From positions 28,927 through 92,926 of the forward strand of contig CAADUZ010000023.1 in the NCBI GenBank assembly GCA_900752335.1: a DNA stretch of 64,000 nt, written 5' to 3'. The notes under the pieces were generated by a model. The model saw only the letters and a list, made by a program, of their open reading frames with translations. It was not told the DNA's origin and did not search any database. Each line of letters begins with the position of its first letter. Positions within the stretch are counted from its first letter, which is position 1. The DNA comes from Clostridia bacterium. GTDB lineage: Bacteria; Bacillota; Clostridia; TANB77; CAG-508. Positions 24,871 to 42,692 of the stretch are shown here, piece by piece. The position numbers and the translations under genes are program-made.

Positions 24871-25066
24871 TTACGCACTCTTTAATTCAAGCCTCAATTT
24901 ATCAGCAATCATTGCGATAAATTCCGAATTTGTTGGCTTACCTTTTGCTGCTGATACTGTGTAGCCGAATATTCTCTCTACTACATCTTGCTTTCCCCTT
25001 CCCCATGCTACTTCTATTGCATGGCGAATTGCGCGTTCTACTCTGCTTGGGGTTGTGTGATATTTT
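24871..25066 (-). pseudogene. displaced 3' fragment of spo0A (spo0A')
   Basis: 24871-25056 aligns without gaps to 41874-42059, with 22 mismatches in 186 nt by hand. It encodes [61 protein letters not shown] plus a stop, 59/61 identical to the intact Spo0A C-terminus. There is no upstream ORF. Confidence 0.9.
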
Positions 25067-25377
25067 ATGTAGAGTTTATGATTGCAAAAATTTGACTAAA
25101 GCAATAAATATTTATAGCTTTTACCTCAATATGTTTATTGCATTGATTGTAATAGAACTTTTTTCGTTTGTCAATTTTATGAACTATACTTTTTATATTT
25201 TTTGTTATGCAAATCAAATTGCTATATACTTATACTTTTAATAATAGTTCAAAAATAAAAATAACATATTTCATTTACTGTTCTATTTCTTCTTTAATAA
25301 ATTATTATTTTAATTTACTTTTGGCTAAGAAATAAAATAAAGAATAAATGAACGATATCATTTATCCTTTATTTTTA

Positions 25378-26352
25378 TTATGATTTATTTCCCATTCCTA
25401 GCAATAAAGCCTGCCCCAAAAGTCCAATCACTTGACTATAAAACCATTGATGTTTATTAAAATGATTCCCTATCCTTTTACAAAGCCCCGTATTCTTAGC
25501 AATGTTTTTAGTTACATTCATATTATCTATGTAATCTTTGACTTCTTCTAATATTTGTTTTAATTCTTCCTTATCTTCGTTTCCCTTTTCTTCTATCTCT
25601 TTTTCTAAATGGTCAATAGAATTGTTTATTGTAACATTTGAATCTGTAATATTTCCCATATTCAAAAATCCTGTATTTGTTATATTTACTAACGGTCTAT
25701 TCATTTTTTCAATCTGCTCCATATATTTTTTCTCCCTTTCAAAATATGTTTTACCTGGATATGTTAATTCAGCACTATAAACTGTGTCAGAAGCCCAAGT
25801 AACATTTATTAATCCATTTTTAATTAGCATACCTATTATGCCTCTATTTAGCTCATCTTCTTCAATTTTATCTGATAAAAAAGTGTCTATATTCTCTTTT
25901 TTTTCATCTTTTATTATTATTTCTTTTAGTAATTCTTTTGCTTGGTCTGTTAATTCTTCAAACAATTCTTTTCTCATTCCTTTCTTTTCAAAATATGATA
26001 GAGCATCAGGTGTTAAAATTATATGCCAATCTCCACCTATATATAGTTTTCCAAAAGATATATATCCAAATAGTTTTAATCTTTCTATTATACCTTCAAT
26101 ATTGAAGTCCATATATTCAGGGAACTCATTACAATTTCCTGTAATTTGCATTATTTTACCATTATTACTTTTCGACAATAATATTAATAACATTGTTTCT
26201 TCTGTTTCCGATAATAATATCATTTTATTTGCTCCTACCAGATTATTTTTTTCTATTATTTCTTTTTGTTTATTTTGTATAATCTTGCCTATACTCTTAT
26301 TTAAATCTTTTTCAAAATTTTTTAAATTGCATTTAATTTTAATCTTTGCCAT
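25378..26352 (-). CDS. hypothetical protein with C-terminal hydrophobic helix
   Basis: 324 aa. No family recognised. C-terminus reads WFYSQVIGLLGQALLLGMG. It lies between the two type I toxin modules. Confidence 0.5.
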   Translation of the reverse strand: MAKIKIKCNLKNFEKDLNKSIGKIIQNKQKEIIEKNNLVGANKMILLSETEETMLLILLSKSNNGKIMQITGNCNEFPEYMDFNIEGIIERLKLFGYISFGKLYIGGDWHIILTPDALSYFEKKGMRKELFEELTDQAKELLKEIIIKDEKKENIDTFLSDKIEEDELNRGIIGMLIKNGLINVTWASDTVYSAELTYPGKTYFEREKKYMEQIEKMNRPLVNITNTGFLNMGNITDSNVTINNSIDHLEKEIEEKGNEDKEELKQILEEVKDYIDNMNVTKNIAKNTGLCKRIGNHFNKHQWFYSQVIGLLGQALLLGMGNKS

Positions 26353-26420
26353 ATAATACCCTTTCTAAATTATTTCTGCAAAAAGTTGACAATTTAATTA
26401 CAAATGTGTATAATAAGTAT

Positions 26421-26506
26421 AGGAAATGAAAGCCACTTTGTGGTTGCCGAAAAAAGATTTAAAAATAAACCATTTACTCGACCAAAGCAGAATGGTTTAT
26501 TTTTTA
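26421..26506 (+). ncRNA. candidate type I antitoxin sRNA 2
   Basis: Promoter TTGACA (26386-26391), 17 nt, TATAAT (26409-26414). Terminator AATAAACCATT/AATGGTTTATT (26464-26501) plus a T-run that overlaps the toxin 2 stop codon. Confidence 0.55.
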
Positions 26507-26620
26507 TTGCCTATGTAGTAAATACAAGATGATGAATACTAAGGCAAAATTTATGATAGTTACACCTACTAATCCAAAGAAAAGTAGTTTGATGATTAAC
26601 AATAATGCTGATTCTACCAT
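26504..26620 (-). CDS. type I toxin-like 38-aa hydrophobic peptide 2
   Basis: MVESALLLIIKLLFFGLVGVTIINFALVFIILYLLHRQ. RBS GGGGGTGGTG. A paralogue of toxin 1, sharing the G-(I/V)-T-I-I core. The 5' UTR is about 115 nt and starts ATAGGAAATGAGAATAAGC. Confidence 0.65.
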   Translation of the reverse strand: MVESALLLIIKLLFFGLVGVTIINFALVFIILYLLHRQ

Positions 26621-27395
26621 AGCACCACCCCCAGTTGTCAGTCTCACAAGCTAAAAGCTGTGGAAATAATATGTATACATCAAAGAGTAAAAGGTGGCAA
26701 CACACTCCGCTTATTCTCATTTCCTATGCTATCTACTATACTATATTTTTTTACAAAAAACAAGCGAACATAGTAAAGTTTTACAAATAATTTTATATGT
26801 TGTCCGTTTCTATTTCTTAATATTTTATGCTAGTTCAAAAATTAAGATAAGGTGCTTTATCTTGGGTTTATTTATAATTAAATAAACTTATATATATTAA
26901 AATAAATTCTTATTATTGGCTCAAATATAGAATAAATGAACTATGTATATAAAATTCTAATTTTATTATGCTAATAAGCTCAATGTTTTCAATAGTTCAC
27001 GGCGTCTACTTTTTAAAATGTTGTAAATTATTATATAAATTTTCATGTGATTATTTTTCTTTTCTAATATTATTATAATTTTTTGAAAGAGAAGGCTGGA
27101 GTATCTGATATAAGCCAAGTTCACTAATTCGCATAATTGCTTTTAAGGCATTTAAAATCGTGCAGACATAAAGTTATATTCCTAAAAAATAAAAAAGCCT
27201 TAAAATGGATTCTAGCAGGTCTGTTTGCTATTCACTAACTATAATTTTTGTGTTACAATTTAGAAAAGTTATAAAATATAATTTTATCTGTTTTTAATTA
27301 AATTTTATATAGTTATTTGAGTAATTTTTATATTATAAAAAACAAAAACGGTCTTTTTCTATCCTAAAAAAGAGCCGTTTTACAAATATTATATT

Positions 27396-28133
27396 TTAAT
27401 TCAAATATTCGCTAATGTCTTTACCTCCAGATATGTTTTTAAATAGTTCTTTTACACATATCTTAAATTCATCTCCTAATTTGTCAAATGCATCAAAAAA
27501 CTCGTTTATATCACTCCTTTTTTGTGTAGCTTTGTCAAATGCATCTAAATATCTATCTAAATTATTGAAATTAGTTTTATTTTTTTCCTCTAATCCTTCA
27601 ATAGCTGAAATTTCAGTCTTAAAAATTTCGACTGCCTCTTTTGTATTATTATAATATTTTCTGAGTTTTTTAAAATCTATATCATTAATTCTATATGTAT
27701 ATGTTGCAATTTCAATCTCGTCCATGTAACCGCCAAAATTATCATTTATTTTTTGATATAAATTAGTGGAAATCTTTTCTTCCATTTCATTTATTTGCTC
27801 TTGCTTAATTTTTTGCTTTTCTATTTCTTTTTGTTCTTGTATTTGTCTTTCTCTTTCTTCTTCAATAATTTCCTTAACCGTTTTTTCTAGTAATAGTGAA
27901 TTATCATTTCTCTTAATTGCTTCATTATACAATTTTTTTTCCTCATCAGTTAGCTTACTATTTGTTACTTTTTCATTGGTTTCATCTCCTGTATATTTTT
28001 GATTTAATACATTACTGAAAAATAAAAAAATACATATAATTGCTATTATAAATATAATGCTAAATATAGTTACTAATGTTATAATAAATTTATTTTTCTT
28101 TTTTCTCTCCATTTTATTTTCAATTCCTTTCAA
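27396..28133 (-). CDS. membrane-anchored coiled-coil protein
   Basis: 245 aa with an N-terminal TM and a Glu/Lys-rich coiled coil. No family recognised. Confidence 0.5.
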   Translation of the reverse strand: MKGIENKMERKKKNKFIITLVTIFSIIFIIAIICIFLFFSNVLNQKYTGDETNEKVTNSKLTDEEKKLYNEAIKRNDNSLLLEKTVKEIIEEERERQIQEQKEIEKQKIKQEQINEMEEKISTNLYQKINDNFGGYMDEIEIATYTYRINDIDFKKLRKYYNNTKEAVEIFKTEISAIEGLEEKNKTNFNNLDRYLDAFDKATQKRSDINEFFDAFDKLGDEFKICVKELFKNISGGKDISEYLN

Positions 28134-28134
28134 T

Positions 28135-28440
28135 TCATTTTATAATTTTTTTCTTAGCCTCAATTCTTAAAATCTTACTTTTTACAATAATTACTATATC
28201 TATAAAAATAATTGGTAATATAATAAAAAATATCCATACCATATTATTGAATTCGAATGCACTTTGAAAATCTAAAATCAACAAACTCTTTACTGCTCTT
28301 GTCATTCCACACAGAGGACAGCCAGTACATTGAAAATGACTAAAAAAGGATAAATACAAAAATGCAATAGTTAATATCAAATAGCTTATTAATCGTGCAT
28401 TTTGGAAATCATAATCATTTATTGTCTCTTTTATTTTCAT
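28135..28440 (-). CDS. DUF2752-like membrane protein
   Basis: 101 aa with the CTGCPLCGMTRA motif characteristic of DUF2752, plus two TMs. Confidence 0.6.
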   Translation of the reverse strand: MKIKETINDYDFQNARLISYLILTIAFLYLSFFSHFQCTGCPLCGMTRAVKSLLILDFQSAFEFNNMVWIFFIILPIIFIDIVIIVKSKILRIEAKKKIIK

Positions 28441-28819
28441 ATTCTACTTTACTCGCTAAATTTATAAAACTTCCTATTAAACTTAGTAATGGGAAAATCA
28501 TAATTATAATATAACAACATACTGTTGTAGATAAAAATAATACACATAATATAAATAATATTATTGTACTTAACAATATAATTGATACTTTGTATAATTT
28601 TGCTACTTCTTTAAATATTTTTCCTTTTAAAAATAATATAGATATAATAATTATTATTGAGCTATTTAGTATTACAATTATTGCATCTACAATAATTTCA
28701 ATATTAGTACGAATGTCATTACCTACAAATTGGTAATATAAAATAAAAATAATCATCGAAAATATTGTTAAAATATTTCCTATTAAACAAAGGAATGTTC
28801 CTGTTTTACCTGATTTCAT
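28415..28819 (-). CDS. polytopic membrane protein
   Basis: About 134 aa from ATG 28819 (AAGGAGAG upstream), with four predicted TMs. Confidence 0.5.
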   Translation of the reverse strand: MKSGKTGTFLCLIGNILTIFSMIIFILYYQFVGNDIRTNIEIIVDAIIVILNSSIIIIISILFLKGKIFKEVAKLYKVSIILLSTIILFILCVLFLSTTVCCYIIIMIFPLLSLIGSFINLASKVEYENKRDNK

Positions 28820-28832
28820 ATCTAATCTCTCC

Positions 28833-29282
28833 TTATTCATTTATAAATCTAGTTATTCTCGCAGAATTAAAAGAAAGTGTGTGTTTATCATTTTCAACTT
28901 CTGTAGCAATTTCTTTTAATAAATCCGAAGTGTAATCAAGATAACCAACAGATAAATCTGTTGCCTCAGTATTATATAAATTTCCTATATTAGTATCAAT
29001 TTTATTATCATGCAATTCCCAAACTTCTTTAAAAGTATGGTCTTTTCCTTGTTCATCTTCAAAGCTATACTGTATAATACAATAGTCACTCTCTTTGTTT
29101 ATTTTTACACTTATAATCTTAAAGCTATCTTTATATTTTAAATATTTATTTCTTTCTTGTGCCCAATCTATAATAATTTTCTCATCATCACTAGGGGTAT
29201 TGTAAAAATAAAGGCTAACTCCTAATGATGTTAGAACTACTATTATTAGAGAAATTATCCAAATTATTTTAATTTTTTTCAA
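28833..29282 (-). CDS. membrane-anchored hypothetical protein
   Basis: 149 aa. TTG start with AGGAGGA 7 nt upstream. N-terminal TM. Confidence 0.5.
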   Translation of the reverse strand: MKKIKIIWIISLIIVVLTSLGVSLYFYNTPSDDEKIIIDWAQERNKYLKYKDSFKIISVKINKESDYCIIQYSFEDEQGKDHTFKEVWELHDNKIDTNIGNLYNTEATDLSVGYLDYTSDLLKEIATEVENDKHTLSFNSARITRFINE

Positions 29283-29294
29283 TTTATTTTCCTC

Positions 29295-29876
29295 CTAGTT
29301 TTCTTGATATATAATAGAGTCTAATATATCATTAAATTCTTTTATTGGCTCTCCCTTTGGATATGTCACACCCATATAAATTATGCCTGCTCTATTTTGT
29401 ATAATATAAATATCTTCTGTAAATGCTCCTGTTTCATACTCTAATAATGTGCAATTAATAGGTTGGATTTTAGATATAGTTGTTTCTTCTCTTTTTATAA
29501 AAGTACTATTATTAAAAGATTCTCTTGTTTGTATATAATTTTGAATTTCTACTTCTTTATTATATGAGATATTTGGACTATCAGGTATATTACAAAAAAA
29601 TTCACTCCCTGCAATTTTAGGATATTCTAAATTAATCTCAGAATAATTGCCTATTGTTGGCTTTTTCAATTCTTTACTATATTTAAACTCAATTCCATAA
29701 GCCTCATTTTTATATGTTTCTAAATTAGAGTTTTCTTCTTCTGCAACATTCCCCACGTTATTATTATTGATTCCATTGTCTTCTTTTTCTCTATTTTGTA
29801 ACATTAAGACTACTGCAAAAATAACAATTATTAATATAACCAGTAAAACTATATATTTCATAATTTTATTTTTCAT
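29295..29876 (-). CDS. membrane-anchored hypothetical protein
   Basis: 193 aa with an N-terminal TM. AAGGAG lies upstream of the start. Confidence 0.5.
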   Translation of the reverse strand: MKNKIMKYIVLLVILIIVIFAVVLMLQNREKEDNGINNNNVGNVAEEENSNLETYKNEAYGIEFKYSKELKKPTIGNYSEINLEYPKIAGSEFFCNIPDSPNISYNKEVEIQNYIQTRESFNNSTFIKREETTISKIQPINCTLLEYETGAFTEDIYIIQNRAGIIYMGVTYPKGEPIKEFNDILDSIIYQEN

Positions 29877-29968
29877 TTTTTAAACATCTCCTTTTTAAAA
29901 TTAAATAATTATATTTTTTCCATTTTCTTTACTAATTTTTAATTCAATTTCTTTTATATTCTTTTGTT

Positions 29969-30265
29969 TCAAATATTTTTTAACATCTTTTTCTTAATTG
30001 ATTCAAATTCATTTTGCGTAATTGTTCCATTATCTGCTAATTTTTTGAACCTTTCTAGTTCGGCAGAATTATATAATATTTTATTTTCCTTTGTTTTATC
30101 TTTTTGTAATGCAACTATTAATAATCCTATTAAACCTAAGATAAATCCACACCAGAATCCAGTCCAATAAGAGTAACCTTTGTTATCATTAATACTTCCG
30201 CTAATTAGTCCAAAAACAAGTCCTATAAATAAATAACTAAAAATGATTATCCAAAAAATGTCCAT
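29969..30265 (-). CDS. SHOCT-domain membrane protein
   Basis: 98 aa with two TMs and a C-terminal ELERFKKLADNGTITQNEFESIKKKML (SHOCT-type short C-terminal domain). GGGAGGTG lies upstream. Confidence 0.6.
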   Translation of the reverse strand: MDIFWIIIFSYLFIGLVFGLISGSINDNKGYSYWTGFWCGFILGLIGLLIVALQKDKTKENKILYNSAELERFKKLADNGTITQNEFESIKKKMLKNI

Positions 30266-30482
30266 TTTTTAACACCTCCCTTTTATTTTCATTGCAATTT
30301 TGATTCAAACAATACTTACAATAACTTGTGCCGAAATATAGTTTGTTTTCACACTTTTTCTCTGTTTTACCCTCTAAATTTTCCACTTCCAGTCTTAAAT
30401 ATTCTTTGGCTGTATATTTGTCATCACTTAACAAACAACTTCTTATTCTATTTAAAACCTCTAAAAATCTTGTGTTTTCCAT
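30237..30482 (-). CDS. Cys-rich hypothetical protein
   Basis: 81 aa from ATG 30482 (AAAGGAG upstream). Contains CKYCLNQNC. Confidence 0.4.
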   Translation of the reverse strand: MENTRFLEVLNRIRSCLLSDDKYTAKEYLRLEVENLEGKTEKKCENKLYFGTSYCKYCLNQNCNENKREVLKNGHFLDNHF

Positions 30483-30602
30483 TCTTTTGCTCCTTTTCAA
30501 ATTCGTGAAAATTATATCATTTTTCACTCTCACTTGCAAGTGCTACCACCCATAAGTGTTATATAGTAAAATACCTAAAAATAAGCAATATGAGGTGGTA
30601 CA

Positions 30603-30822
30603 ATGATTAAATTAAATGTAGAAAAATTATTGAAGGAACAAAATAAAACTAAAACTTGGTTATGCGACCAGTTAGATATATCATTTTATAATCTTAATAA
30701 AGCCATAAAACCACGGTAAGAAAAGTATTTCATATAAGTATTTAGAAGGTTTTTGTAGAGCTTTAAATTGCAGTTTTAATGATTTAATGTCAATAACCGA
30801 TGACGACAAAGAAGTGAATTAA
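30603..30822 (+). pseudogene. small HTH (XRE/YozG-like) regulator, frameshifted
   Basis: MIKLNVEKLLKEQNKTKTWLCDQLDISFYNLNKAIKPR-stop. It continues in another frame as GKKSISYKYLEGFCRALNCSFNDLMSITDDDKEVN. One extra base lies near 30713-30717. Confidence 0.65.
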
Positions 30823-31055
30823 TTCTTTCCATAAAGAACATTGTTCATTTCTTTGTTTATTTTTTTCTCTATTTTCTTTGCTTTTTCGCTATCTTTTCCA
30901 TATTTTTCTTGTATCTTTTTGTATTCAACCATTAAATAATAAATTTTATTATTTAGAATTTTATCTATATTTTCTATTGCTCTATCTGTATTTCCATACC
31001 TTAAATCCGCTTCAATTTTTTCTAAAATATCTATTGCTATCAAATTTTCTATCAT
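30819..31055 (-). CDS. hypothetical 78-aa protein
   Basis: ORF with a plausible RBS (AAAGAGGGG upstream). No family recognised. Confidence 0.4.
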   Translation of the reverse strand: MIENLIAIDILEKIEADLRYGNTDRAIENIDKILNNKIYYLMVEYKKIQEKYGKDSEKAKKIEKKINKEMNNVLYGKN

Positions 31056-31170
31056 TTTTTACCCCTCTTTTTACAACGTATTACCTATCGTCTAATCTGT
31101 GCAACGATTATATACCAAAACTATTGTAAAATCAATTCATATTTAATAAAAAATTGGAGATAATACATTT

Positions 31171-31431
31171 ATGAATAATGGAAATAAATACAATGGAAAA
31201 TTAAATGTAATTGGTTTAAAAATAAAATATTATAGAGAGAAAAATGGTTGGTCTTTATCTGAATTATCAAATAGGCTAATGTTGCAAGGTATAGATATCC
31301 CTAAATCGTCATTGCAACGAATGGAAACTGGAGGTAGAGCAATACGAGATTATGAACTTGCTGGATTCTCAAAAGTTTTCAAGGTTTCTCCAAATATTCT
31401 TTTAAAGGATTTCTTGGAAGAAATCGAATAA
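31171..31431 (+). CDS. XRE-family HTH regulator
   Basis: 86 aa: IGLKIKYYREKNGWSLSELSNRLMLQGIDIPKSSLQRMETG, a typical HTH_3. Confidence 0.7.
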   Translation: MNNGNKYNGKLNVIGLKIKYYREKNGWSLSELSNRLMLQGIDIPKSSLQRMETGGRAIRDYELAGFSKVFKVSPNILLKDFLEEIE

Positions 31432-31574
31432 AGATTCTACTGTATTTATATAGTAGTTTCTTTTTTTGGCTAGGAGAGTACAGGTGCATATACCAAATAT
31501 ACTAAAAACTTCTTATTGGATAACTTAAAATAGGGGGGGACAAAAAGAACTAGCGATGTGCTAGCCCTCATTTT

Positions 31575-32017: not shown

Positions 32018-32036
32018 TTCTTTTTTTACCTCTTTT

Positions 32037-32885
32037 CTATAAAATATTAATTCTTTCTTTTATTTCTTCTTGTGAAGGATTTACATATATTTCTGTTGTT
32101 CTTGTACTTGCATGTCCTCCTATCATTGCTATTTCAATAAGCGAAAAGCCTTTTTTTTGCATATTAGTAAAGCAATAATGCCTTCCTCCGTGAGGTGTCA
32201 AAACACTCGAATATTTATTGAATATCTGATTTATTCTGCTACGACTTACTTTTTTTGACTGTCTACTGACAAACAAATATGAGCTGTCGCTTTTTCTTTC
32301 TTTTAGATATTCTTTTATTGCCTCCACGACTTTGTCGTTCATAAAAACTGTTCTAACTTTTCCGCCTTTTCCGTTTCTTACTATTATTTCTTTACTTGTC
32401 AAGTCAAAATCTGTCATTTGAATATTTAAGCACTCACTAATACGCAAACCTACATAAACAATTATAGTTACTATTGCATAGTCTCTTTTTGTCTCATTTT
32501 CTAATATCTGTTGTCTAAATCTTTCTATGTCTGATGCGTTTACCTTACACGGATTTATATGTTGCTTTTGTATTTTAATAAAATCGTTATCATTTAAAAC
32601 AATGTCTTGTTGTATTTCACTATCTACTAAATATTTGTTATATTTCATTATTGCTGATAAGTTAGCATTAATTGTTTCCGCTTTTAGTGTTTGTCCTTTT
32701 TTCGTTTTCTTTATATTTCGTAAGTAGCTTTTGTAATCTAATACATTAGGTCTATATATTTTTTTCAATTCCTCGCCTGTTGTATCTTTATACCATTTTT
32801 TAAAATTTTCTATGTTTTGTATGTAAGTTTGTATTGTGTTTTGTGATTTGTTTTGTTCTGATAAATAATTTTTAAAATCTTCCAT
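32037..32885 (-). CDS. tyrosine recombinase (XerC/D-like), second recombinase of the element
   Basis: 282 aa from ATG 32885 (AAAGGAGTGG upstream). Catalytic set visible: GLRISE (R), GKGGKVR (K), HGGRH (H-x-x-R), GGHAS (H), TEIY (Y). Confidence 0.8.
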   Translation of the reverse strand: MEDFKNYLSEQNKSQNTIQTYIQNIENFKKWYKDTTGEELKKIYRPNVLDYKSYLRNIKKTKKGQTLKAETINANLSAIMKYNKYLVDSEIQQDIVLNDNDFIKIQKQHINPCKVNASDIERFRQQILENETKRDYAIVTIIVYVGLRISECLNIQMTDFDLTSKEIIVRNGKGGKVRTVFMNDKVVEAIKEYLKERKSDSSYLFVSRQSKKVSRSRINQIFNKYSSVLTPHGGRHYCFTNMQKKGFSLIEIAMIGGHASTRTTEIYVNPSQEEIKERINIL

Positions 32886-33077
32886 TCGTTCCACTCCTTT
32901 CTGTGTAATTATGTTTAACTTGTTTTTTATACTTTTATATGTAATTATGCTTAACTCAATATATGAATTATACAAGTTTTAGCATTCTAGCTCAACATAA
33001 TTGACATTATGATAAACTCATTTTATTTTTTGGTTTAGGCTACTATATAATGTATAAGAAAACATAGTAGCCTTATT

Positions 33078-33140
33078 TTATCTTTTGCCCATTCCGCCTT
33101 TTAAAAGTAAAATAATAATATATATAATTATTAACGCCAT
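33078..33140 (-). CDS. 20-aa hydrophobic micropeptide (tentative)
   Basis: MALIIIYIIILLLKGGMGKR. GGAGG lies 7 nt upstream of the ATG, 18 nt after the previous stop. The hairpin AGGCTACTAT...ATAGTAGCCT (33040-33076) follows. Confidence 0.35.
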   Translation of the reverse strand: MALIIIYIIILLLKGGMGKR

Positions 33141-33965: not shown

Positions 33966-35495
33966 AATAAAAACACCTACCTTTCTATAAAATATTTTCA
34001 AAATACCTATTGAAAGATAAGTGCAAAATGTGTTATTATATAAATGTAAATATCTTTCAAAGGTATTTCGATGTAGCTTTTATATATGTTTGAAGTTTGG
34101 CGACCGATAACATATATAAAAGTATTTTTTTGTTCTTTATGAACTATAAAGATGTTACCATATTTCTCAAAAAATGTCAATACGAAAATCAAATATTTCC
34201 TTACAGCCTCAACGATTTTAAGTTTTGAACATTGTCAAATTAAAGCACAAGTTTTCGTATATAATATCGCAAATTTTCTGTTATCCAGCGAATTTGAAAT
34301 TTAAGTGTTTTTTATTATTATGCAAGCAAAAATAAGTATATATTACATATATTATTACTTTTAATATTAATATCATATAGCAAATCAAATAAGTATTATT
34401 TAGTACATTTATGAAATCATTATTTTAAAACAAAAAGATAATAAAGTCATAATAATATAAGTCTTTTATTTTTAATGTTCTTGCAACTTTTAAAGTTTAA
34501 ATCTGAAAATCATAAACAGGCAATAGAATATAAGTATTTCAACTATTGGCTGTTTAAAAGTTAGAAAAATAAATAGAATCTTCATATCTTAATTGTTTTA
34601 ATATTCTTTTTCTTCTTCATTTATTACCGTTGTTAGTTTTTAGCATATTTATAACACTATTTTTTGCATTTATATCTGTAGAATAATAAAAAAATTAAAT
34701 ACGCATTGTATAGTGGAATATCAAGTTCATAGAAATAGAATAACTATAATGTAGCAAAGCCATTATAGTATTTCATAGTATAATTGGCTCTTGCAGAAAC
34801 TCAAAAACTCTACAGTATTTTGACATTTAGTACAATACCACTTTTTTGAATTTTTTGCACATAGATTCTATAAACTACATATAATTATAAAAAAACATAG
34901 TAGTATATATTACTGAAGGTTTTTATTTTTCACAAATGTAGCTCTTATATAAATACGATTTACTATTATAAAAACAGTGTTTCAATTCTTATAAATTATT
35001 ACTTTCTAACAACACAACAAACTCCATATAACTCTTGCTAATTCCATTTTTTATACTTTTAAATTGATTTACAAAAGTTAGTAGTATTATTTAATACAAA
35101 TGCTACAGCAATTGTTTTTGGTTACAATAACAGTATTACAATTATTTTTATTATTTATCTACTTTTCAATAACTCTTTTTAGGCAAATCAACAAAAACAA
35201 AGTATAATAAAAATTATCGTTCATAAAATGTGTAAAAGTCTATAAGTATTTTGGATATTATTGCAGATGTAGATTCCAATGTTATATGCTAAATTTCAAT
35301 TTTTGAACTATAATAAAAGTTGTCTTATTATTGCAAATACTTTAACTACAAATAATATTATATTTTATAAATTTTAAAACACACACATTAAAAAATTCCA
35401 TTTTTCAACTTTTTGTAAATTTAAAAAAATGAAAATTTAAAAATATAGGAGCTAGTCATAATAAATATGTACTAAATAGCCCCTATATTTTAATA

Positions 35496-37058
35496 TCATA
35501 AATCTTTACTTTCCATAGCTGTTTCTTCACTGTTCTTTGCTTCTAATTCTTCTTCATTTTTACTAGTTACATCAATCTCTAAATCCTTTACAAATTCTGC
35601 CTGCTCTGCTGGAAAACCACTAAACAAATGGACTGTACAATTATATCTAAGTAGTCTTGCCCTTCCAACAGCTTGTTCTATTTCAGATTGTAAAAAATAT
35701 GTAATGATTTTTTGATAGTGTTCATTAGAATAAGTTGTAATTTTAAATGAATATTCATCATTTTCTATTCTTTGATAATGTGGTCTATCCTCTGTTATTA
35801 TCTCGCCATATAAAGAATACAAGAAAAACTTATAGACAATATCATTTAAGTAAGGCATACCTACTACAACTATGTCTTGTCCTTCTAAATTATTCAAGCC
35901 TTCGATTGCTCCAAAATTATAATCTCTTTCATTGCAAAATTTCTTAAATGTGATTAAAGGTACATTGGGATATTTTTTCCTTATTTCTTCTAATATTTGT
36001 GGAGAATTATCTAAACAAGTTCTACTATAAGAGTATGAGTAATCCTGTAATAGCTTGCCCATATATTTATCATGTGGTATTTTTATATTTTCTATGTCTC
36101 TATCTTCAAAATACTTAATATAAAAATCCTTTTCCATCGTGGCAGATAAAACATAAGTAGTCATAAATGGTATATCTCTACAAATCAAACAATGTACTAA
36201 ATCATCATCATTATAGCTGTTTTTCATTTTTTCTTTATTGGGATTATATTTATAAATTGCACTAATAGAAAGCACATCAAAAATGTTGTAAATATCTTGG
36301 TGTAAATTTGTAACTTCTTCCTCTATATCTTCAATTTCTTCTTGACTCATATATTTTTGATAAATTGGCTCTACTGCATTTATCTGTTTGTAAGGTGCTT
36401 TTAAGATTATATCTATCTTTTTTTGTAATTTATCTTTATAATGATTTTCTAATATATTACAAGTTTTTCTTAATTTAGCTAAACTATATGTTTTTACCTT
36501 TATACATTCCCTCAAAATATCTTCATCAATTATCAATTTATGTGTATAAACTAGGCACCAATGTAGATAAAATAATCTAGCCCAAGTAGTTACAATATGT
36601 CCTTCAAAGTGATTTACTGTTTCATTTTGTACTAAATAATAGGTTATGTTATTTATATCTGCATTAATTTTATTTAACTTAGCCTCATTTGTTTCCTTTT
36701 CAGCTTGTTCTTCCAATTCTTTAACTGCATTATTTAAAAATTCTTTTCTTTTTTCAACAGCACCAATTTGCATTAAATAAAAATATTCTTCTTTTATTTC
36801 TTGGTCATTGATTTCAGGAATTTCAGGAGTTTCCATTATATCTGTTACTCCCATATTAACTAAATCATTATAAACTTGATGTTTTAATTCATTAGTTGGA
36901 AGTGCTATTATGAATTTATCCCAAAAAGCATTTTTTATAACTTTTTCATATGCACTTGTTTTTCCTAAAGAAGTTTGAGCACTTACTAGTGTCAACAAAT
37001 GATTTTTACGTTGATGTTTTAAGTACTTTTCGTAGTTTTCTTTATTTGCCTCTATCAC
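35496..37058 (-). CDS. SF2 (DEAD/DEAH-like) helicase
   Basis: 520 aa. Motif I SAQTSLGKTS, motif II IIDEDI, motif III LSATM, motif VI QAVGRARL. Confidence 0.7.
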   Translation of the reverse strand: MIEANKENYEKYLKHQRKNHLLTLVSAQTSLGKTSAYEKVIKNAFWDKFIIALPTNELKHQVYNDLVNMGVTDIMETPEIPEINDQEIKEEYFYLMQIGAVEKRKEFLNNAVKELEEQAEKETNEAKLNKINADINNITYYLVQNETVNHFEGHIVTTWARLFYLHWCLVYTHKLIIDEDILRECIKVKTYSLAKLRKTCNILENHYKDKLQKKIDIILKAPYKQINAVEPIYQKYMSQEEIEDIEEEVTNLHQDIYNIFDVLSISAIYKYNPNKEKMKNSYNDDDLVHCLICRDIPFMTTYVLSATMEKDFYIKYFEDRDIENIKIPHDKYMGKLLQDYSYSYSRTCLDNSPQILEEIRKKYPNVPLITFKKFCNERDYNFGAIEGLNNLEGQDIVVVGMPYLNDIVYKFFLYSLYGEIITEDRPHYQRIENDEYSFKITTYSNEHYQKIITYFLQSEIEQAVGRARLLRYNCTVHLFSGFPAEQAEFVKDLEIDVTSKNEEELEAKNSEETAMESKDL

Positions 37059-37607
37059 TTAAAGCACCCCTTTTTTTAATGCATTCAGTAACTGTTCATA
37101 TCCTTTGTCCTTGTCTAAGTAGTTCACACTATTATTGTTTAGCTTGTAAATTTTATTTTTTGGGACAACTGTGTTAACTATGTTACGATAATGTTTGCAT
37201 TCTGCCTCAAATGGGCAAAATTTAGAACATTGCATTGCACTATAATTGCATTTTTTTGCATATTCTATTTGCATTTCCCATTTGTTATCTTTTTCTTCGT
37301 TGTACAAGTTATCATATTTTTCTATAGTCTCTAATATTCTTTTTTTGCCTCCCTCAAAATACATTAAATTGAGCGATAAGCCAAAAAGTTCTTGATGATG
37401 TAATCGCCTTTCGCCTGTTACAAATATCTTGAATAGTCGGCATTTTTCTATAACATTGTTCCAATCGTTTATCTTTACTTTTGGTAATTCAGTTTTGGTA
37501 TTGGTTGTTAAATACTTTTTTGTTTCTTCTTTTTCAGATACTTCTGTTTTTGTTTTCTTCTTTTTTACCAATGTATATTTATCTGACATTGAAATTTCAT
37601 AGAACAT
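37059..37607 (-). CDS. hypothetical protein, possible primase C-terminal-type helper
   Basis: 182 aa, abutting the helicase start (stop 37059, helicase start 37058). Cys cluster CSKFCPFEAECKH. The assignment is speculative. Confidence 0.4.
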   Translation of the reverse strand: MFYEISMSDKYTLVKKKKTKTEVSEKEETKKYLTTNTKTELPKVKINDWNNVIEKCRLFKIFVTGERRLHHQELFGLSLNLMYFEGGKKRILETIEKYDNLYNEEKDNKWEMQIEYAKKCNYSAMQCSKFCPFEAECKHYRNIVNTVVPKNKIYKLNNNSVNYLDKDKGYEQLLNALKKGVL

Positions 37608-37629
37608 TTTTTCGCCATTTTGTACGAAA

Positions 37630-38751
37630 TTACCGAACTACTATAATATAATAATATAATGATTCGGTGTTTTCGTATGCTTTATCATTCTGAAAAACTT
37701 TTTGACATACATTTCCCCTTACACAAAAATGCTGTTTTGAAAACATCTCCATATTATATGTATGCTCTTGTTCTTTTCTTAACTGTTCCTCTTGTTCTTC
37801 TGATATTTCAACTTTTCTTACGTGGAAAATGCCGTTTAGAAGATTAATCCCTGTTTTTTTTGAAAACTCTTGCATATTTTTGGAAAAATTTGCACTATCT
37901 TTCTTTTTTAAGTATTTTTCGAAACATCTAAAATATTTATCTAATTCTATACTTTTCCCAAAATGAGGATTTTTTTCTTCAATTGGTGTATTACTTCCAT
38001 GAAATTGTCTGTTCACATTTGTACAGTTACTGTCAAAATATTCAGGAAACATCGCTTGCAATAATAATATTATTCCTTGAGCTAAATCCCAACTAAAAAT
38101 AGGAACATCTGTCTTGAATATTAATCTAAATCTTTCTCCTTTTGTAGGGTCTGAAAAGGTTTTATATGCAAATAACACATTTAAGTCTAAATCAATTATT
38201 CTTTGCTTTACTTCTTTGTACATTTCGCCATATGGTGGAGTAATATCATTTTTATTTCTATCTTGTTTATGGTCTACATCAAGCCCAAAAGTTGACATTG
38301 AAATAAAATATTCTTTTGTATTTTTTACATTTCCTCCAGTTTCTAGTATTTGAATTAACCAATTAGGTGTTCCTAAAGCTATCTCACATAATCTATCCCA
38401 TGCAAAAAAAGTTTCTATTGCCATTTCATCTGACGTACATTTTCCATATGTTTTATGGTAATAATCTAAATCGAGAAAAATACACCCACAAAAAGTTTTG
38501 CCTTTGCTTGCGACTTCTTCCTCCAATTCATAAGTTTTTAGTAGTGTTGGCTGTAATTTCAAGCCATATGTAATAATACCATCTTCATTTACAGGTTTTT
38601 CAAAACGTTTTTTAGGAAATATTGAAACATACATTCCTCTTTCTGGTATTTCATCAGCTTGTCTAATAGGGGTATCATATAGCTCATATATTCTTTTTCT
38701 ACTTTCTTTTTCCTTTCTCATTATCTCTATCTCTTTTTCCCAATAGCCCAT
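37630..38751 (-). CDS. putative primase-polymerase (AEP-like) replication protein
   Basis: 373 aa. CIFLDLDY resembles AEP motif I (DxD), and GLDVDH and ERFRLIF are further candidate motifs. Its position between the Cro-like gene and the helicase matches a replication module. Family call is from memory only. Confidence 0.45.
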   Translation of the reverse strand: MGYWEKEIEIMRKEKESRKRIYELYDTPIRQADEIPERGMYVSIFPKKRFEKPVNEDGIITYGLKLQPTLLKTYELEEEVASKGKTFCGCIFLDLDYYHKTYGKCTSDEMAIETFFAWDRLCEIALGTPNWLIQILETGGNVKNTKEYFISMSTFGLDVDHKQDRNKNDITPPYGEMYKEVKQRIIDLDLNVLFAYKTFSDPTKGERFRLIFKTDVPIFSWDLAQGIILLLQAMFPEYFDSNCTNVNRQFHGSNTPIEEKNPHFGKSIELDKYFRCFEKYLKKKDSANFSKNMQEFSKKTGINLLNGIFHVRKVEISEEQEEQLRKEQEHTYNMEMFSKQHFCVRGNVCQKVFQNDKAYENTESLYYYIIVVR

Positions 38752-38830
38752 TGTTAATTCCTCCTGATATTTTCTGTATTTGGGGAAATGGCTTATTTTA
38801 AGCCATTTTTTTAGCCTCTAAAAAAGATTC

Positions 38831-39040
38831 CTAAACTAATTTTTCTCCTCTATGTTCTCTTAAAATTTTTAAAAGACTTCCCTTTTCTATTTGCCAATGA
38901 CCAATTTTAACACCAAATTTTTTTAAAAAATCTGATGCTCTATTTTCATTGATTCCAAACAAATCTGCGATTTCTTGATAACCTAAAATAATTATATTAT
39001 CTTCTTCTTTATTAATTTGTTCATTTGGTTTTTCTTCCAT
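38831..39040 (-). CDS. small HTH protein (Cro/excisionase-like)
   Basis: 69 aa from ATG 39040 (AAAGGAG 7 nt upstream). Contains LGYQEIADLFGINENRASDFLKKFG. It is the first gene of the leftward operon. Confidence 0.6.
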   Translation of the reverse strand: MEEKPNEQINKEEDNIIILGYQEIADLFGINENRASDFLKKFGVKIGHWQIEKGSLLKILREHRGEKLV

Positions 39041-39232
39041 TTTCAAGCTCCTTTCAATATATTTCTATATTTTAGTTGCTGTATGTACCTTTAATAAAAC
39101 AAGGTACTGTAGGAACTTGACAAAAAATTTTTACTACCATAACCAGTTTCATTTTTACTATTTTTTTCTTTTCTGCTTTATTTGCTTTTATTTTTCTCAC
39201 CTCTTTAATCACCAATTTAAGTACTGAAAACA

Positions 39233-39310
39233 ATAATATCACAATATTTTAGTGATGTCAATAAATTTTAGTAATTTTTTCTTGACAGCACTATTTTATT
39301 GTGATATTAT
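39233..39310. promoter_or_regulatory. back-to-back mirror-image promoters/operators of the element switch
   Basis: 27-bp inverted arms at 39235-39261 and 39282-39308 (3 or 4 mismatches). Each carries TTGACA, a 17-nt spacer containing ATTGTGATAT, and TATTAT. One faces the Cro-like gene and the other faces the CI-like gene. Confidence 0.6.
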
Positions 39311-39337
39311 GTATCTGTATTTGGAGGTGATTGAAAA

Positions 39338-40237
39338 ATGGATTTATATTATGGAGAGAAAATTAAGGAATATAGAGCTTCAAACAAATTAACACAAGAA
39401 GTATTAGCAAAACAACTTGGAATTTCTACTAGTCTGTTGAGAATGATTGAGCTTGGTCTAAGAAAACCTAATGACAAAATTAAAGAAAAAATTTTAAATT
39501 TGACTGGTATTTCCTATTATGATGAAATCATAAAACAAGTAGATAAAAAAATATCAGAACTTGTAATGAACTATATAACGTCAAATTCAACTTTTTTTTC
39601 GCCTGAAAATGTTACAAAATTAGTTAGAATTTTGAGTGCTTTATATAATACTATTAATTCTTCTAAAATAGAAATAAGGGAATATTTAGATAAAAATGAA
39701 AATAATAACATTGAATATATGGCATCTAACCTTATAAATTTGTTAGAAAATTTTTCTGCAAATGGTTTTTTCAATATAAAAGATATTTTTGGCAATAATA
39801 CAAATTTTATAAAACATTGCATTCCAATTATTCTTGATATATTAAAAACAAGCTCATCTATTATATATCAAAATAAAGAAATTCCTTTATATACCGACGA
39901 TTTGCCATTAGACATAAAAAGAAACACTGTAAAAGAGATATTATCTAAAAGCTATTTCTCTGATAAAAGTAAATTTGCCTTTATCATAAAGAATGATGAT
40001 ATGTTTCCCAAATATGAAAAGGGATATACTGCAATAGCCATTGAATGTGATGAAAAAAGTACGAGTGGTGATGTTATTTTATCTATTAACAAAGCTACTC
40101 CTATATTGAGGAAAATTAGTTTTGAGGGCTCTTATGTAATAGTTGAATCATATAATCCTCAAATAAAGACACAATTACTTACTAAAGATGAAATTAAAAT
40201 TTTAGGACAAATTATTGAAATAAGACTTTTTAATTGA
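39338..40237 (+). CDS. CI-like repressor: XRE HTH plus degenerate S24 (LexA-like) domain
   Basis: N-terminal HTH (IKEYRASNKLTQEVLAKQLGISTSLLRMIELG). C-terminal S24-like fold (IIKNDDMFPKYEKGYTAIAIE...GDVILS...ILRKISF...VESYNP). Asp replaces the nucleophilic Ser of GDSM. Confidence 0.7.
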   Translation: MDLYYGEKIKEYRASNKLTQEVLAKQLGISTSLLRMIELGLRKPNDKIKEKILNLTGISYYDEIIKQVDKKISELVMNYITSNSTFFSPENVTKLVRILSALYNTINSSKIEIREYLDKNENNNIEYMASNLINLLENFSANGFFNIKDIFGNNTNFIKHCIPIILDILKTSSSIIYQNKEIPLYTDDLPLDIKRNTVKEILSKSYFSDKSKFAFIIKNDDMFPKYEKGYTAIAIECDEKSTSGDVILSINKATPILRKISFEGSYVIVESYNPQIKTQLLTKDEIKILGQIIEIRLFN

Positions 40238-40663
40238 CTTCATTAATCAATAACTTAAATAAAAATAGAGTAATATGTTTTAGTTTGCAGACCGAACATA
40301 TTACTCCAAGCACCAAATACTTCAATATGAAAGTATTAGCTATTATTATTTTAACAAAAATAGTTCGAAAAAGCAATAAATAGCATAACTTTCCTTTGAA
40401 GTATTAAAGAAAAATAAATATTTGAAGGAGGTTTTTTATTATGGAAAAAGCGTGCTAATGGAGAAGGAACACTTTACAAAGCAATTCAAAAAAAAATAGA
40501 AAGAAATCCTCAAAAATACCCACATGAAATCTTTGAAGCTTTAGAATTAAAAAAAGCTAGTAAAGTAAATAAAGAAATGCTTAATGAATTTGAGGAATTT
40601 CTTAAAATTGACCCATTAAAAAAAGAATGATATGTAAAAATAAATACATATCATTCTTCTTTT

Positions 40664-41647
40664 TTATTTTTTTAAGTTCATTAGTGGCGAAAACCTCTGA
40701 TACTTTTTCCTTAAATCTTCTGTCTCTAAGTCTAAATAGCACTCCTCTGTTACCTTTACTGAACTATGTCCCAAAATTTTTGATAATGTATAAATATCTC
40801 CACCATTCATTAAAAATCTTTTTGCGAAATTATTTCGTAACATATGAGGATGTATATCTTTCTTCCCAATTCTCTCTCCATATACAGTAAAATTACTTTC
40901 AAAACTTCTTATTTCTAGCCTACTTCCTCTTGTAGTGCAAAAACAAAATTCACTGTCTTTGTATCTATCTCTATATTGTAGCCATCTTCTTAATTCTGTT
41001 CCCATTTGAACTGAAAAAAACACATATCTATCTTTCTTACCTTTTGTTATATCTGCTGATAAAAATATTGTTCGTTCATTAAAATTTATATCAGTTTCAT
41101 CTCTTATCATTAAACATTCGCCAACCCTCATACCAGTATCAAATATGAGTTGTGTTATAACATAATCCCTATATTCGTGAAATTTTGATAAATCAAAGCA
41201 TTTTAGTAATTTTGCAAACATTTCATCTTCTAAATAATCTTTTACCTTTCTAGGTGTTTTAATTGTTTTTATATTACTTACAGGATTGGTTTTTATTAAT
41301 CTGTTTTCATACATATAATTAAAATAAACTCTCATATTCCTAATATAATTGTTTATTGTTACTAAACTTACTTTTTTTCCAAAGTCTCCTCTGTTCTGTG
41401 GATTGTTTATCTTTTTTGATTTTTCATTATAAACAACTGTATATTTTCCCCTTTCTTTTAAGTTTTCAATATAATCTTTTAAATGTTTTTCTTTTACCTG
41501 CTCTGTTTTAGTTATATCAAATTTCTCTTTTAGATAAATAACTAAAAGTCGCAAAGACTGTTCATAACTCCCATAAGTCTTTTGTGATAGCCCCTTATAA
41601 TCACAATAATTAATAAAATCATCAATTTCTAAATCAATTTTTTCCAT
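40664..41647 (-). CDS. int: tyrosine integrase (phage integrase family)
   Basis: 327 aa from ATG 41647 (AAGGAGG upstream). N-terminal SAM-like domain. Catalytic residues: TGMRVGE (R), HPHMLRNNF (H-x-x-R), LGHSSVKVTEECY (H, Y). It is 226 nt from the spo0A stop. Confidence 0.85.
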   Translation of the reverse strand: MEKIDLEIDDFINYCDYKGLSQKTYGSYEQSLRLLVIYLKEKFDITKTEQVKEKHLKDYIENLKERGKYTVVYNEKSKKINNPQNRGDFGKKVSLVTINNYIRNMRVYFNYMYENRLIKTNPVSNIKTIKTPRKVKDYLEDEMFAKLLKCFDLSKFHEYRDYVITQLIFDTGMRVGECLMIRDETDINFNERTIFLSADITKGKKDRYVFFSVQMGTELRRWLQYRDRYKDSEFCFCTTRGSRLEIRSFESNFTVYGERIGKKDIHPHMLRNNFAKRFLMNGGDIYTLSKILGHSSVKVTEECYLDLETEDLRKKYQRFSPLMNLKK

Positions 41648-41756
41648 ACAAAAATTCCTCCTTACATTTATTATTTTTAACAAACATAAAGAGGAAATTT
41701 TTTCCATATTTCATAACCAATAAATTTTTAATTTATTGCTATCACTTAAAATAGTT

Positions 41757-41846
41757 CATTGCAATACTGGCGAATTTTTTTCTATTCTATTTCGCTTTTT
41801 ATGCAATTTATTGCAATCAGTGCGAATTTTAATATTCTATTTTCTC
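41757..41846. repeat. two ~38-nt imperfect direct repeats between int and spo0A (candidate arm-type sites)
   Basis: CATTGCAATACTGGCGAATTTTTTTCTATTCTATTTCGC (41757-41795) versus TATTGCAATCAGTGCGAATTTTAATATTCTATTTTCTC (41809-41846). Confidence 0.6.
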
Positions 41847-41873
41847 TTACTCTCTCAAGCATTATGCCATATC

Positions 41874-42692
41874 TTATGCTGTTTTTAATTCAAGCCTCAA
41901 TTTATCAGCTATCATTGCGATAAACTCTGAATTTGTTGGCTTGCCTTTTGCTGCAGACACCGTATATCCAAATATTCTTTCTACTACGTCTTGTTGTCCA
42001 CGTCCCCATGCTACTTCTATTGCATGGCGAATTGCACGTTCTACTCTGCTTGGAGTTGTTCTATATTTCTCTGCAATTTCTGGATATAGCTGTTTTGTTA
42101 TTTGATTAATCATATCAATATCGCTTACTACCATTACTATGGCTTCTCTTAAATATTGATATCCTTTAATATGAGCTGGAACTCCCACTTCATGTATTAT
42201 ATTCGTAACTAATGCTTCTAAATTTTTCTCACTTTTTTGTGTTGCTGGGGGTATATTTATATATTGTGATTTTATTTCTCTACTTATTACATTTGTCTTG
42301 TTGTTTGTTGGTTGATAATATTTTAAATCTTTTATTCTCCTTACTAATATATTTATATCAAATGGTTTTACTATGTAATATTGTGCCCCTAATTCAATGG
42401 CTTTTCTTGTTATTTTGTCTTGACCTACTGCTGATAATATGATGCACATAGGTTTTTTGCTTAAATCTGCTGTATTTAATTTTTCTAATACACCTAGTCC
42501 ATCTAAATGTGGCATTATTATGTCTAATAATGCTATGTCCGGTTTTGTTTCCACTATTTTGTTATAGGCGTCTTGCCCATCTCTTGCTATTCCTACTACT
42601 TCTAGGTCTTCGTCTTTTGATAAATAGCTAACTAAAGTTCTTGCAAAGTCTTGATTGTCATCTGATACTAAAATCTTGATTTTCTCATTCAA
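41874..42692 (-). CDS. spo0A: sporulation master regulator Spo0A (chimeric: last ~60 codons element-derived)
   Basis: 272 aa. The receiver has DDN...[11 protein letters not shown]. The C-terminal Spo0A DNA-binding domain has [17 protein letters not shown]...[15 protein letters not shown]. Confidence 0.95.

Follow-up and report, generated by a model that had tools for sequence, protein, structure and literature searches.

How can a mobile element occupy the gene of the master sporulation regulator and leave its reading frame whole? The question is raised by a 64,000-nt stretch of DNA (hereafter, the window) from a Clostridia bacterium (GenBank assembly GCA_900752335.1, contig CAADUZ010000023.1, positions 28,927 to 92,926), in which the 3′ end of spo0A occurs twice, on either side of about 17 kb of DNA with an integrase gene. 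In the European Nucleotide Archive the sequence corresponds to metagenome contig ERZ27263529, k119_119627. Spo0A is the switch into sporulation and, in many Firmicutes, also acts on toxin, solvent, and biofilm programmes. An initial annotation of the window had read the interval as an integrase-bearing element inserted in the 3′ end of an intact spo0A. Our analysis indicates that it is, with high probability, an integrative element of 17,003 bp, whose own Xer-like tyrosine integrase inserted it at a short, conserved core, GCAATGAT, near the 3′ end of the gene.

The repeat that bounds the interval was aligned exactly as first described: positions 24871 to 25056 match 41874 to 42059 without gaps and with 22 mismatches in 186 nt, a stop codon closes both copies, and the 61 encoded residues differ only at Q233K and T271S. 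The dN/dS ratio over the 61 codons is 0.039 (dS 0.65), so that the differences are mostly synonymous, as had been supposed. Beyond the 186 nt, weak similarity runs on to 25065/42068 (K-Y codons), and the longest identical block is 33 nt (25000 to 25032) rather than the 32 nt first given. With 195 nt, 87% identity, and a spacing of 17,003, this pair is the top direct repeat of the window; a 32-mer common to the copies occurs twice, versus zero expected from 100 shuffles. A third, older copy of the spo0A end was looked for in the window by tblastn and by the 32-mer count and was not found, tblastn recovering two Spo0A C-terminal copies only. One copy closes a full-length, uninterrupted Spo0A open reading frame (ORF) of 272 aa, 99.6% identical to the species allele. 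The other, here called the remnant, lacks a usable start, with an in-frame stop upstream and a first ATG (Met260) that leaves 13 codons. Integrase and spo0A lie on the same strand. The distance of 226 nt reported between them is correct, but it is the start codon of int (41647), its 5′ end, that lies 226 nt downstream of the spo0A stop, and not the end of the gene.

Contigs of the same species show what the locus looks like without the interval. The 90%-identity cluster of the window's Spo0A comprises 21 sequences, the commonest of which, P0122, is found on 102 contigs and ends in ...LKSA, versus ...LKTA in the window (T271 in place of the species' usual S271). Ten contigs with P0122 (L002 to L011), whose flanks are 98 to 99% identical to the window in BLASTN, contain a single spo0A, zero integrase genes, and no 17-kb insert. 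They share with the window the upstream order Met-gamma-lyase, HI0933-like flavoprotein, Impact_N protein, and spo0A, and continue after spo0A directly into the genes below window position 24871, to a DUF8370 protein and homoserine dehydrogenase. In BLASTN, the coordinates of L002 are continuous from window position 41884 to 25056, with an overlap equal to the repeat length. Because the empty-site contigs run continuously with one spo0A and no integrase, the 17,003 bp are a clean, strain-variable insertion. These sites and the full reading frame bear out the integrase-bearing element of the initial annotation, and none of the ten relatives lacking int carries both copies. The annotation had also expected an empty site in which sequence from 42070 upward joins the remnant version of the gene end; the empty-site alleles are instead nearer to the functional copy (7 to 14 mismatches in 186 nt) than to the remnant (16 to 23 in 186).

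To describe the junctions, positions are numbered over the last 260 nt of the gene, position p lying at 42134−p in the functional copy and at 25131−p in the remnant. The functional copy equals L002 over positions 1 to 205, differs from it at 206, 209, 215, 251, 253, 254, and 257, and diverges from it totally after the stop. The remnant is unrelated to L002 before position 66, shows 16 differences between 72 and 191 and further ones at 215 and 224, and equals L002 from position 225 to at least 120 nt downstream of the gene. The remnant is a chimera, its 5′ two-thirds non-host and its tail host, and the window data alone place the crossover within positions 192 to 250. A metagenome pattern scan yielded locus L083, which is identical to the window over 405 of 405 nt from position 216 into int, including the stop, the whole intergenic arm, and the first 45 int codons. 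Upstream of 215, L083 consists of another gene, a 159-aa receiver-less Spo0A_C-type ORF (923 to 1402) with its own start codon, preceded by an Fe-alcohol-dehydrogenase gene; this ORF is an alternative integration target of the window's element. Since the same element end is joined to a different target in L083, the exchange took place at or after 215/216, and a much later exchange point is disfavored because the two genes, only 53% identical, would then have to agree by chance over a long run. Across the 11 copy pairs (those of the window and of ten related loci), a single block is invariant, ATGAT at positions 219 to 223, which lies between the variable third-codon positions 218 and 224. In L016, L024, L027, and L028 the copies are identical for 50 to 150 nt upstream of ATGAT and mismatched directly after it. 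From these comparisons, the crossover core is most likely GCAATGAT, codons Ala259-Met260-Ile261 (Table 1), a sequence-invariant anchor because Met has a single codon.

Other crossover positions were considered. The initial annotation had pointed to the identical blocks of 32 (33) and 17 nt, but both lie upstream of all phase-informative sites and are simply the most constrained codons; the core proposed here is ~80 nt further 3′. The sequence AAGCCAACAAATTC (positions 192 to 205), suggested by the empty-site comparison alone, was dropped, L083 having host-type bases up to 215. The empty-site allele L008 shares the synonymous 206A and 209G with the functional copy, which may be ordinary polymorphism or the footprint of a past exchange with an element arm.

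With the crossover at GCAATGAT, 37 nt of the gene and its 3′ untranslated region (UTR) come from the element. The replacement Spo0A C terminus that the element had been said to carry thus does replace the end of the gene, but it amounts to merely the last 11 codons and the stop. What had been called a displaced pseudo-3′ end is host sequence over 24871 to 24907, whereas 24916 to 25066 is the P arm of the element's attachment site. In the mechanism that we propose, the spo0A-like part of this site would amount to ~195 nt, with 51 codons upstream of the core and 11 codons plus the stop downstream of it. Recombination at the core would complete the host gene with the 11 codons of the element, yielding a 272-codon spo0A with one change, S271T; the host's last 37 nt would come to lie at a distance of 17 kb, as a noncoding remnant joined to the P arm.

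The 51 codons of the P arm differ from the host copy by 17 mismatches (dN 0.019, dS 0.67). Its outer boundary (AATCATA.AC.CTACATAAAATAT) recurs at the equivalent position of the element in L016 (integrase 90% identical), and because this boundary is shared the P arm is taken to travel with the element. Synonymous divergence of this kind would be expected of a piece copied from a working spo0A of another lineage and is no sign of present-day translation. Across the family the P arm starts at residue 209, 213, 221, 223, 229, or 243 to 245, the minimum being ~29 codons. Homologous exchange between such long repeats would overwrite the P arm from the core outward, which fits the copy pairs that are identical near the core.

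The link between this integrase and spo0A extends across spore-formers. A scan for the integrase with one genome per species (185,579 species) gave 43 loci, of which 39 have at least 46% identity (range, 46 to 92%). In 33 of the 39, a full spo0A lies upstream on the same strand and ends ~170 to 250 nt before int; two loci start inside the spo0A 3′ end, three have no upstream DNA, and L046 has upstream DNA with no spo0A. The four remaining loci, an outgroup from Bdellovibrionota with 30 to 35% identity, have no spo0A upstream. Hosts of the family belong to Clostridia and Oscillospirales, among them Clostridium metagenome-assembled genomes, Subdoligranulum, Faecalibacterium, and Eubacterium, together with one Bacillus relative (the isolate Ureibacillus aquaedulcis), and their Spo0A proteins are 39 to 92% identical to that of the window. 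Many family members are very small, since a second, partial spo0A copy sits 4.5 to 7 kb downstream in 11 loci. Tandem arrays are suggested by L021 and L032, where the sequence past the remnant stop corresponds to the int-proximal arm of a further element.

True temperate phages use integrases of the same family. In IMG/VR, 22 contigs of 7.8 to 89 kb (most of them 30 to 60 kb) encode an integrase ~51% identical to that of the window; one has a full spo0A upstream, and four (32 to 45 kb) have Spo0A residues 203 to 268 only. In these four, genes for a tape measure protein, a Hoc-like head-decoration protein, and an endolysin precede the spo0A fragment, which is followed by int, the layout expected for the attP site of a free phage. 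INPHARED contains no phage with this integrase above 30% identity. Four of its Spo0A_C records were inspected (H1, H2, H4, and H9); they are unverified faecal contigs in which the match spans nearly the whole spo0A gene.

Several points weigh against this reconstruction. L083 is a single 1.7-kb contig at 1.8× coverage and could be a chimeric assembly; without it, a crossover at positions 192 to 205 is slightly more parsimonious. The GCAATGAT core requires that the host allele of the window had 206A, 209G, and 215C, and 215C is present in no empty site. The IMG/VR contigs with an attP layout could instead be tandem lysogens. Neither an excised circle nor a repaired attB of the window's element was seen, and a scan of JGI metagenomes for the P-arm junction gave zero matches.

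Table 1. Features of the spo0A-integrated element and its junctions (window coordinates; a point marks features without strand)
Feature	Coordinates	Strand	Basis
Functional spo0A, 272 aa, chimeric (host to core, then element)	41874..42692	-	Response_reg + Spo0A_C; phasing with L002
attL core GCAATGAT, A259-M260-I261 (predicted)	41911..41918	-	L083 junction; ATGAT invariant
Element-supplied spo0A end: third base of I261, 11 codons, stop	41874..41910	-	Comparisons with L002 and L083
P′ arm, new spo0A 3′ UTR	41697..41873	-	Motif kept in related loci
19-bp hairpin before int ATG	41655..41696	-	Folding; counterpart in 18/19 family loci
Xer-like tyrosine integrase, 327 aa	40664..41647	-	PF00589 1.8e-31; phrog_1; XerA/C/D-like
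Repressor, HTH_3 + Peptidase_S24-like C-terminal domain, convergent with int	39338..40237	+	Domain searches
Divergent promoter/operator region	39233..39310	.	Two 11/12 sigma-70 matches, extended -10, 33-nt inverted repeat
Two small ORFs, 56 + 71 aa, head of rightward operon	38831..39242	-	Cro/excisionase candidate, no family match
Archaeo-eukaryotic primase (AEP) primase-polymerase-like protein, 373 aa (tentative)	37630..38751	-	Motif, fold match
182-aa protein of replication trio	37059..37607	-	Homologue comparison
Superfamily 2 (SF2) DEAD/DEAH-type helicase, 520 aa	35496..37058	-	Sub-threshold PF00270 on P-loop; homologues
ORF-free 1.3 kb, 22% G+C, downstream of helicase	34200..35495	.	Possible replication origin
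Second Xer-like tyrosine recombinase	32037..32975	-	PF00589 7.9e-33
Second HTH_3 regulator	31171..31431	+	Heads module also in 6.6-kb L016 element
Cargo: small membrane/secreted proteins (SHOCT, PsbP_2-like, others), 324-aa protein	25378..30539	-	Partly in L016, L164
P arm, spo0A-like residues 209-259, no start codon	24916..25066	-	Unlike all 10 empty-site alleles
attR core GCAATGAT (predicted)	24908..24915	-	Copy-pair comparison, L083
Displaced host last 11 codons + stop	24871..24907	-	Identical to L002 from position 225, 120 nt downstream

What kind of element this is must be read from its gene content (Table 1). The CI/Cro-type switch, the helicase, and the second recombinase named in the initial annotation are all present, while the primase-like gene is a weak call made on a fold match and a DxD motif. 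In the 373-aa protein, D158-x-D160 and H251 are invariant in 20 homologues, and the core of its AlphaFold model (pLDDT 70 to 94 in the core; mean, 57.7) has as best Foldseek matches in the PDB the PrimPol AEP domains 6zp9_A (prob 0.98, E 0.018) and 7nqd_A (prob 0.80). It is tentatively a primase-polymerase (prim-pol), the weak Foldseek E value of 0.018 and the low mean pLDDT arguing against the assignment. Homologues of ~577 aa seem to combine the 182-aa protein and the prim-pol in one fused polypeptide. Homologues of the helicase carry PF00270/PF04851 and are named DEAD/DEAH helicase; sequence searches of the PDB with the 373- and 520-aa proteins gave no match. No convincing iteron family was found in the ORF-free region at 34200 to 35495, and no Rfam match at an E value of ≤0.1 was obtained over 22000 to 44000. 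In the S24 domain of the repressor, inspection by eye found NDDM where LexA-type proteins have GDSM; BLASTP against an approximate sequence of E. coli LexA did not align the S24 domains.

A collinear element is present at spo0A of another species (L164 and L165), with int, an S24 repressor, the prim-pol, a 181-aa protein, and a DEAD helicase, followed by a ~1.5-kb gap equivalent in place to the ORF-free region, a recombinase, regulators, and PsbP_2. Its recombinase, in the slot of the window's second recombinase, is a 204-aa serine resolvase (L164, 13950 to 14564; L165, 8405 to 9019), and for this reason we read the second recombinase of the window as probably serving multimer resolution and not integration. 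The family is modular, since the L016 element has the integrase and the left-hand cargo module alone. PADLOC detected no defence system in the cargo, which amounts to ~6 kb of small membrane proteins and proteins with no assigned function. Two small hydrophobic ORFs with a basic C terminus, one in the host flank (24507 to 24662, − strand, 51 aa) and one in the element (26504 to 26647, − strand, 47 aa), each lie just downstream of a common 45-nt sequence (24662 to 24706 and 26706 to 26750, 87% identical). An ORF 71 to 73% identical to them adjoins int in the L020 and L021 elements, and they look like type I toxin genes.

Profile scans agree with the earlier remark that virion, lysis, and conjugation genes are lacking. 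No structural or lysis PHROG, capsid, terminase, and tail included, was matched in 25067 to 41873, although the related phages of 30 to 60 kb have such genes, and no relaxase, coupling protein, or type IV secretion system (T4SS) component scored above threshold; the best matches to proteins from integrative and conjugative elements (ICEs) were membrane proteins with E values of 0.003 to 0.007, at 15 to 17 bits versus cutoffs of 138 to 241 bits. Pfam, PHROGs, and NCBIfam gave no match to packaging genes (terS, capsid-size redirection, cos/pac) in any ORF scanned, many of these ORFs having no assigned function. The element is not a complete prophage, nor is it an ICE. Once excised it would probably replicate, by means of the prim-pol/helicase module. 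Its induction may be independent of the SOS response or dependent on a helper. Transfer would most likely occur by hitch-hiking on a helper phage or another mobilizing element, a route favored because virion and conjugation genes are lacking.

Two lifestyles are compatible with this set of genes. It is possible, if somewhat short of probable, that the element is a phage satellite similar to the phage-inducible chromosomal islands (PICIs), repressed until a helper infects the cell and then excised, replicated, and packaged in helper capsids. A PICI-like set is present within its 17 kb, namely, int at one end, a convergent repressor, divergent promoters, and a replication module of helicase and tentative prim-pol; capsid, terminase, tail, and lysis matches are lacking; true phages share the integrase family and the site; and the NDDM seen by eye in the repressor hints that it does not cleave itself. 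These features, a similar size, and a site-specific attachment site in a conserved gene recall PICIs and the Staphylococcus aureus pathogenicity islands (SaPIs). The likeness ends, however, at the HTH-plus-S24 repressor, which is unlike known PICI Stl proteins, at the extra resolution recombinase, and at the lack of any recognized terS, capsid-remodelling, cos, or pac function; no helper has been identified, and the helicase has no relative among 50,697 phage records.

We also consider, with similar reserve, a plasmid-like or mobilizable integrative element that replicates as a circle after excision and moves, if at all, by way of a conjugative helper, or an immobile, decayed relic. The replication module combined with a dedicated resolution recombinase (tyrosine here, serine in L164/L165), the small ORFs resembling type I toxins, and the membrane-protein cargo point in this direction, but relaxase, T4SS, and coupling-protein matches are restricted to the sub-threshold membrane proteins described above, and the helicase has no relative among 72,556 plasmid records either.

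Beyond its own genes, the element provides spo0A with a new 3′ UTR. The P′ arm contains two 35-nt repeats of the form ATTGCAAT-N4-GCGAATTTT-N4-TATTCTATT (41758 to 41792 and 41810 to 41843), which are candidate integrase arm sites. In the hairpin that follows, the 3′ arm is the Shine-Dalgarno (SD) sequence of int, AAGGAGGAA, succeeded by TTTTTGT and the ATG. The 75-nt leaders of 18 other family loci, those of high-G+C phages included, were folded (positions equivalent to window 41655 to 41696 in L013 to L045 and L080); all except L038 gave a stable hairpin (median z, −5.7 versus mononucleotide shuffles) in which the SD is paired and a T-run and the start codon follow. The stems differ in sequence, length, and register, and RNAalifold on the MAFFT-aligned leader hairpins returned no structure. 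A simple scan of the 1 kb after spo0A of the empty site found no terminator-like site. We infer that the hairpin is a spo0A terminator supplied by the element that also occludes the int ribosome-binding site; together with the T-run, it would end spo0A transcripts and keep int silent. It is tempting, though unlikely to be right, to assume that the choice of spo0A ties the element to the sporulation decision and is more than that of a convenient conserved site. Excision could respond to spo0A expression as sporulation begins, or the element could adjust the amount of Spo0A; this reading draws on the replaced 3′ UTR and terminator, the changed C-terminal residue, and the position of int, behind the conserved hairpin, in the spo0A transcription path.

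No description of integration at spo0A was found in the open-access full-text literature; Spo0A fragments on mobile elements have been reported twice. Jiang et al. (2019, PMC6907783) reported an enrichment of PF08769 (Spo0A_C) among the mobile elements of gut Firmicutes and classed it as sporulation cargo. Schwartz et al. (2023, PMC10294663) described 29 spo0A homologues of gut phages that are truncated to the effector domain, with a proposed role in regulating sporulation; neither “integrase” nor “attachment” occurs as a word in the latter paper. Our observations share with both reports receiver-less Spo0A C-terminal sequence on mobile elements and differ in that some of it, treated there as cargo or regulators, reads here as attachment sites. 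When IMG/VR was scanned with the C-terminal 70 residues of Spo0A, 345 matches were obtained; among the best 80 loci, 65 are fragments without the rest of spo0A. The family integrase lies ~205 to 218 nt downstream of 11 of these 65 (nine starting at residue 203 to 208 and two at 178), and these look like attachment sites. Forty-eight have no family integrase nearby and are mostly longer, starting at residue 118 to 178, and six lack downstream DNA. The sole longer fragment inspected as an ORF (L152, 2854 to 3234) encodes 126 aa from its own ATG in a phage early region and has the look of a genuine gene. The published phage-spo0A signal is accounted for in part, though not in full, by attachment-site fragments.

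Could the remnant itself, then, be a functional receiver-less Spo0A gene that manipulates sporulation, as proposed for gut phages (PMC10294663)? Its dN/dS of 0.04 and the existence of stand-alone effector-domain ORFs in phage L152 and in L083 speak for it. The copy spans residues 209 to 272, however, under half of the 149 to 272 matched by the L083 ORF, it is closely preceded by an in-frame stop and offers no start codon until Met260, and copying of the arm from a functional spo0A of another lineage would itself give a low dN/dS, so that we consider this very improbable. Long P arms may nevertheless, though this too is unlikely, be vestiges of receiver-less Spo0A genes or, in some relatives, may still be such genes; if so, the 3′ end of a receiver-less Spo0A gene would double as attP and link “phage-encoded spo0A” to integration. 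An assembly artefact, or plain segmental duplication with no site-specific recombination, is suggested by the window being a metagenome contig but is hardly credible, given that four independent contigs carry the window's junction, that the architecture recurs in dozens of independent assemblies from different species, and that an assembler would neither collapse nor duplicate copies that are 12% diverged.

The analogy drawn in the initial annotation with e14 and phage 21 holds for the mechanism. These tyrosine-integrase elements of E. coli lie inside the 3′ end of a protein-coding gene, icd, and carry a diverged gene end by which the ORF is regenerated and the pseudo-3′ end displaced to the far junction. 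The target at the 3′ end, the restored ORF, and the displaced pseudo-3′ end are common to them and the element described here, which differs in its target (spo0A, in Firmicutes), in a crossover 37 nt from the end of homology with ~150 nt of duplicated coding sequence on the side not needed for rebuilding the gene, and in a short, Xer-like integrase transcribed away from the target gene. The dusA-specific integrases (Farrugia et al. 2015, PMC4482086) serve prophages and genomic islands of many species at one conserved target and, like the spo0A family, form a clade set by one protein-coding gene that is restored; the dusA elements, found in Proteobacteria, rebuild a tRNA-modification gene at its 5′ end, whereas the spo0A element rebuilds the 3′ end of a developmental master regulator in Firmicutes. 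Mobile elements at sporulation genes of endospore formers also include skin, SPbeta, and other intervening elements, in sigK, spsM, and yabG (“yin”; PMC10747680), but these interrupt the gene, whose restoration requires that they excise, usually in the mother cell, while spo0A is never interrupted here; as the initial annotation had held, no excision is needed to restore it. Gene-end-restoring integration is thus already known from icd and dusA. The target and the integrase family look new, the latter apparently undescribed, and further novelty lies in the 11-codon replacement with a long element-borne P arm and in the conserved SD-sequestering hairpin.

Some further features of the window and of the empty-site contigs were recorded. 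A 13-nt deletion, AGAAATATAGAAC, at about codon 208 (L012, ~822 to 823; ERZ16268053 scaffold_1225) shortens Spo0A to 212 aa; it falls exactly where the element's homology begins, and another insertion was ruled out as its cause. L012 may be a naturally occurring spo0A-null variant of the same species; alternatively, the deletion is an assembly error. Just beyond the element, a second indel of ~1.07 kb (23293 to 24368), including a 213-aa membrane-protein ORF (23294 to 23935, + strand), is absent from the four empty-site or related contigs aligned (L002, L003, L005, and L012). An IS605-family OrfB/TnpB insertion at ~49302 to 50748 (Cas12f-like TNB domain; TnpB ORF at ~49390 to 50652, − strand) sets the window apart from the empty-site contigs, which lack it. 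Two intergenic, near-perfect hairpins (TGGAACAAGGGGACACACA...) with a stem of 29 to 30 bp lie 45.7 kb apart (14251 to 14313 and 60036 to 60098), possibly an element like repetitive extragenic palindromes (REP) or the ends of IS200/IS605. An RluA-type pseudouridine synthase gene (6544 to 7231, − strand) appears to be split into two overlapping ORFs (6866 to 7231 and 6544 to 6939), which suggests a frameshift or a sequencing error.

The end of spo0A thus joins the integration hotspots as one not listed before, where phages, small islands, and tandem arrays insert in Clostridia and Oscillospirales of the gut. The site is non-disruptive and its host range broad, so that together with its integrase it could serve genetic tools for anaerobes that are hard to engineer. 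Gut studies widely rely on spo0A to mark spore-forming bacteria. Part of the truncated spo0A and Spo0A_C sequence reported on gut phages and mobile elements would be attachment-site fragments and not regulators, and Spo0A_C matches in viromes would mix such fragments with genuine stand-alone effector-domain genes.

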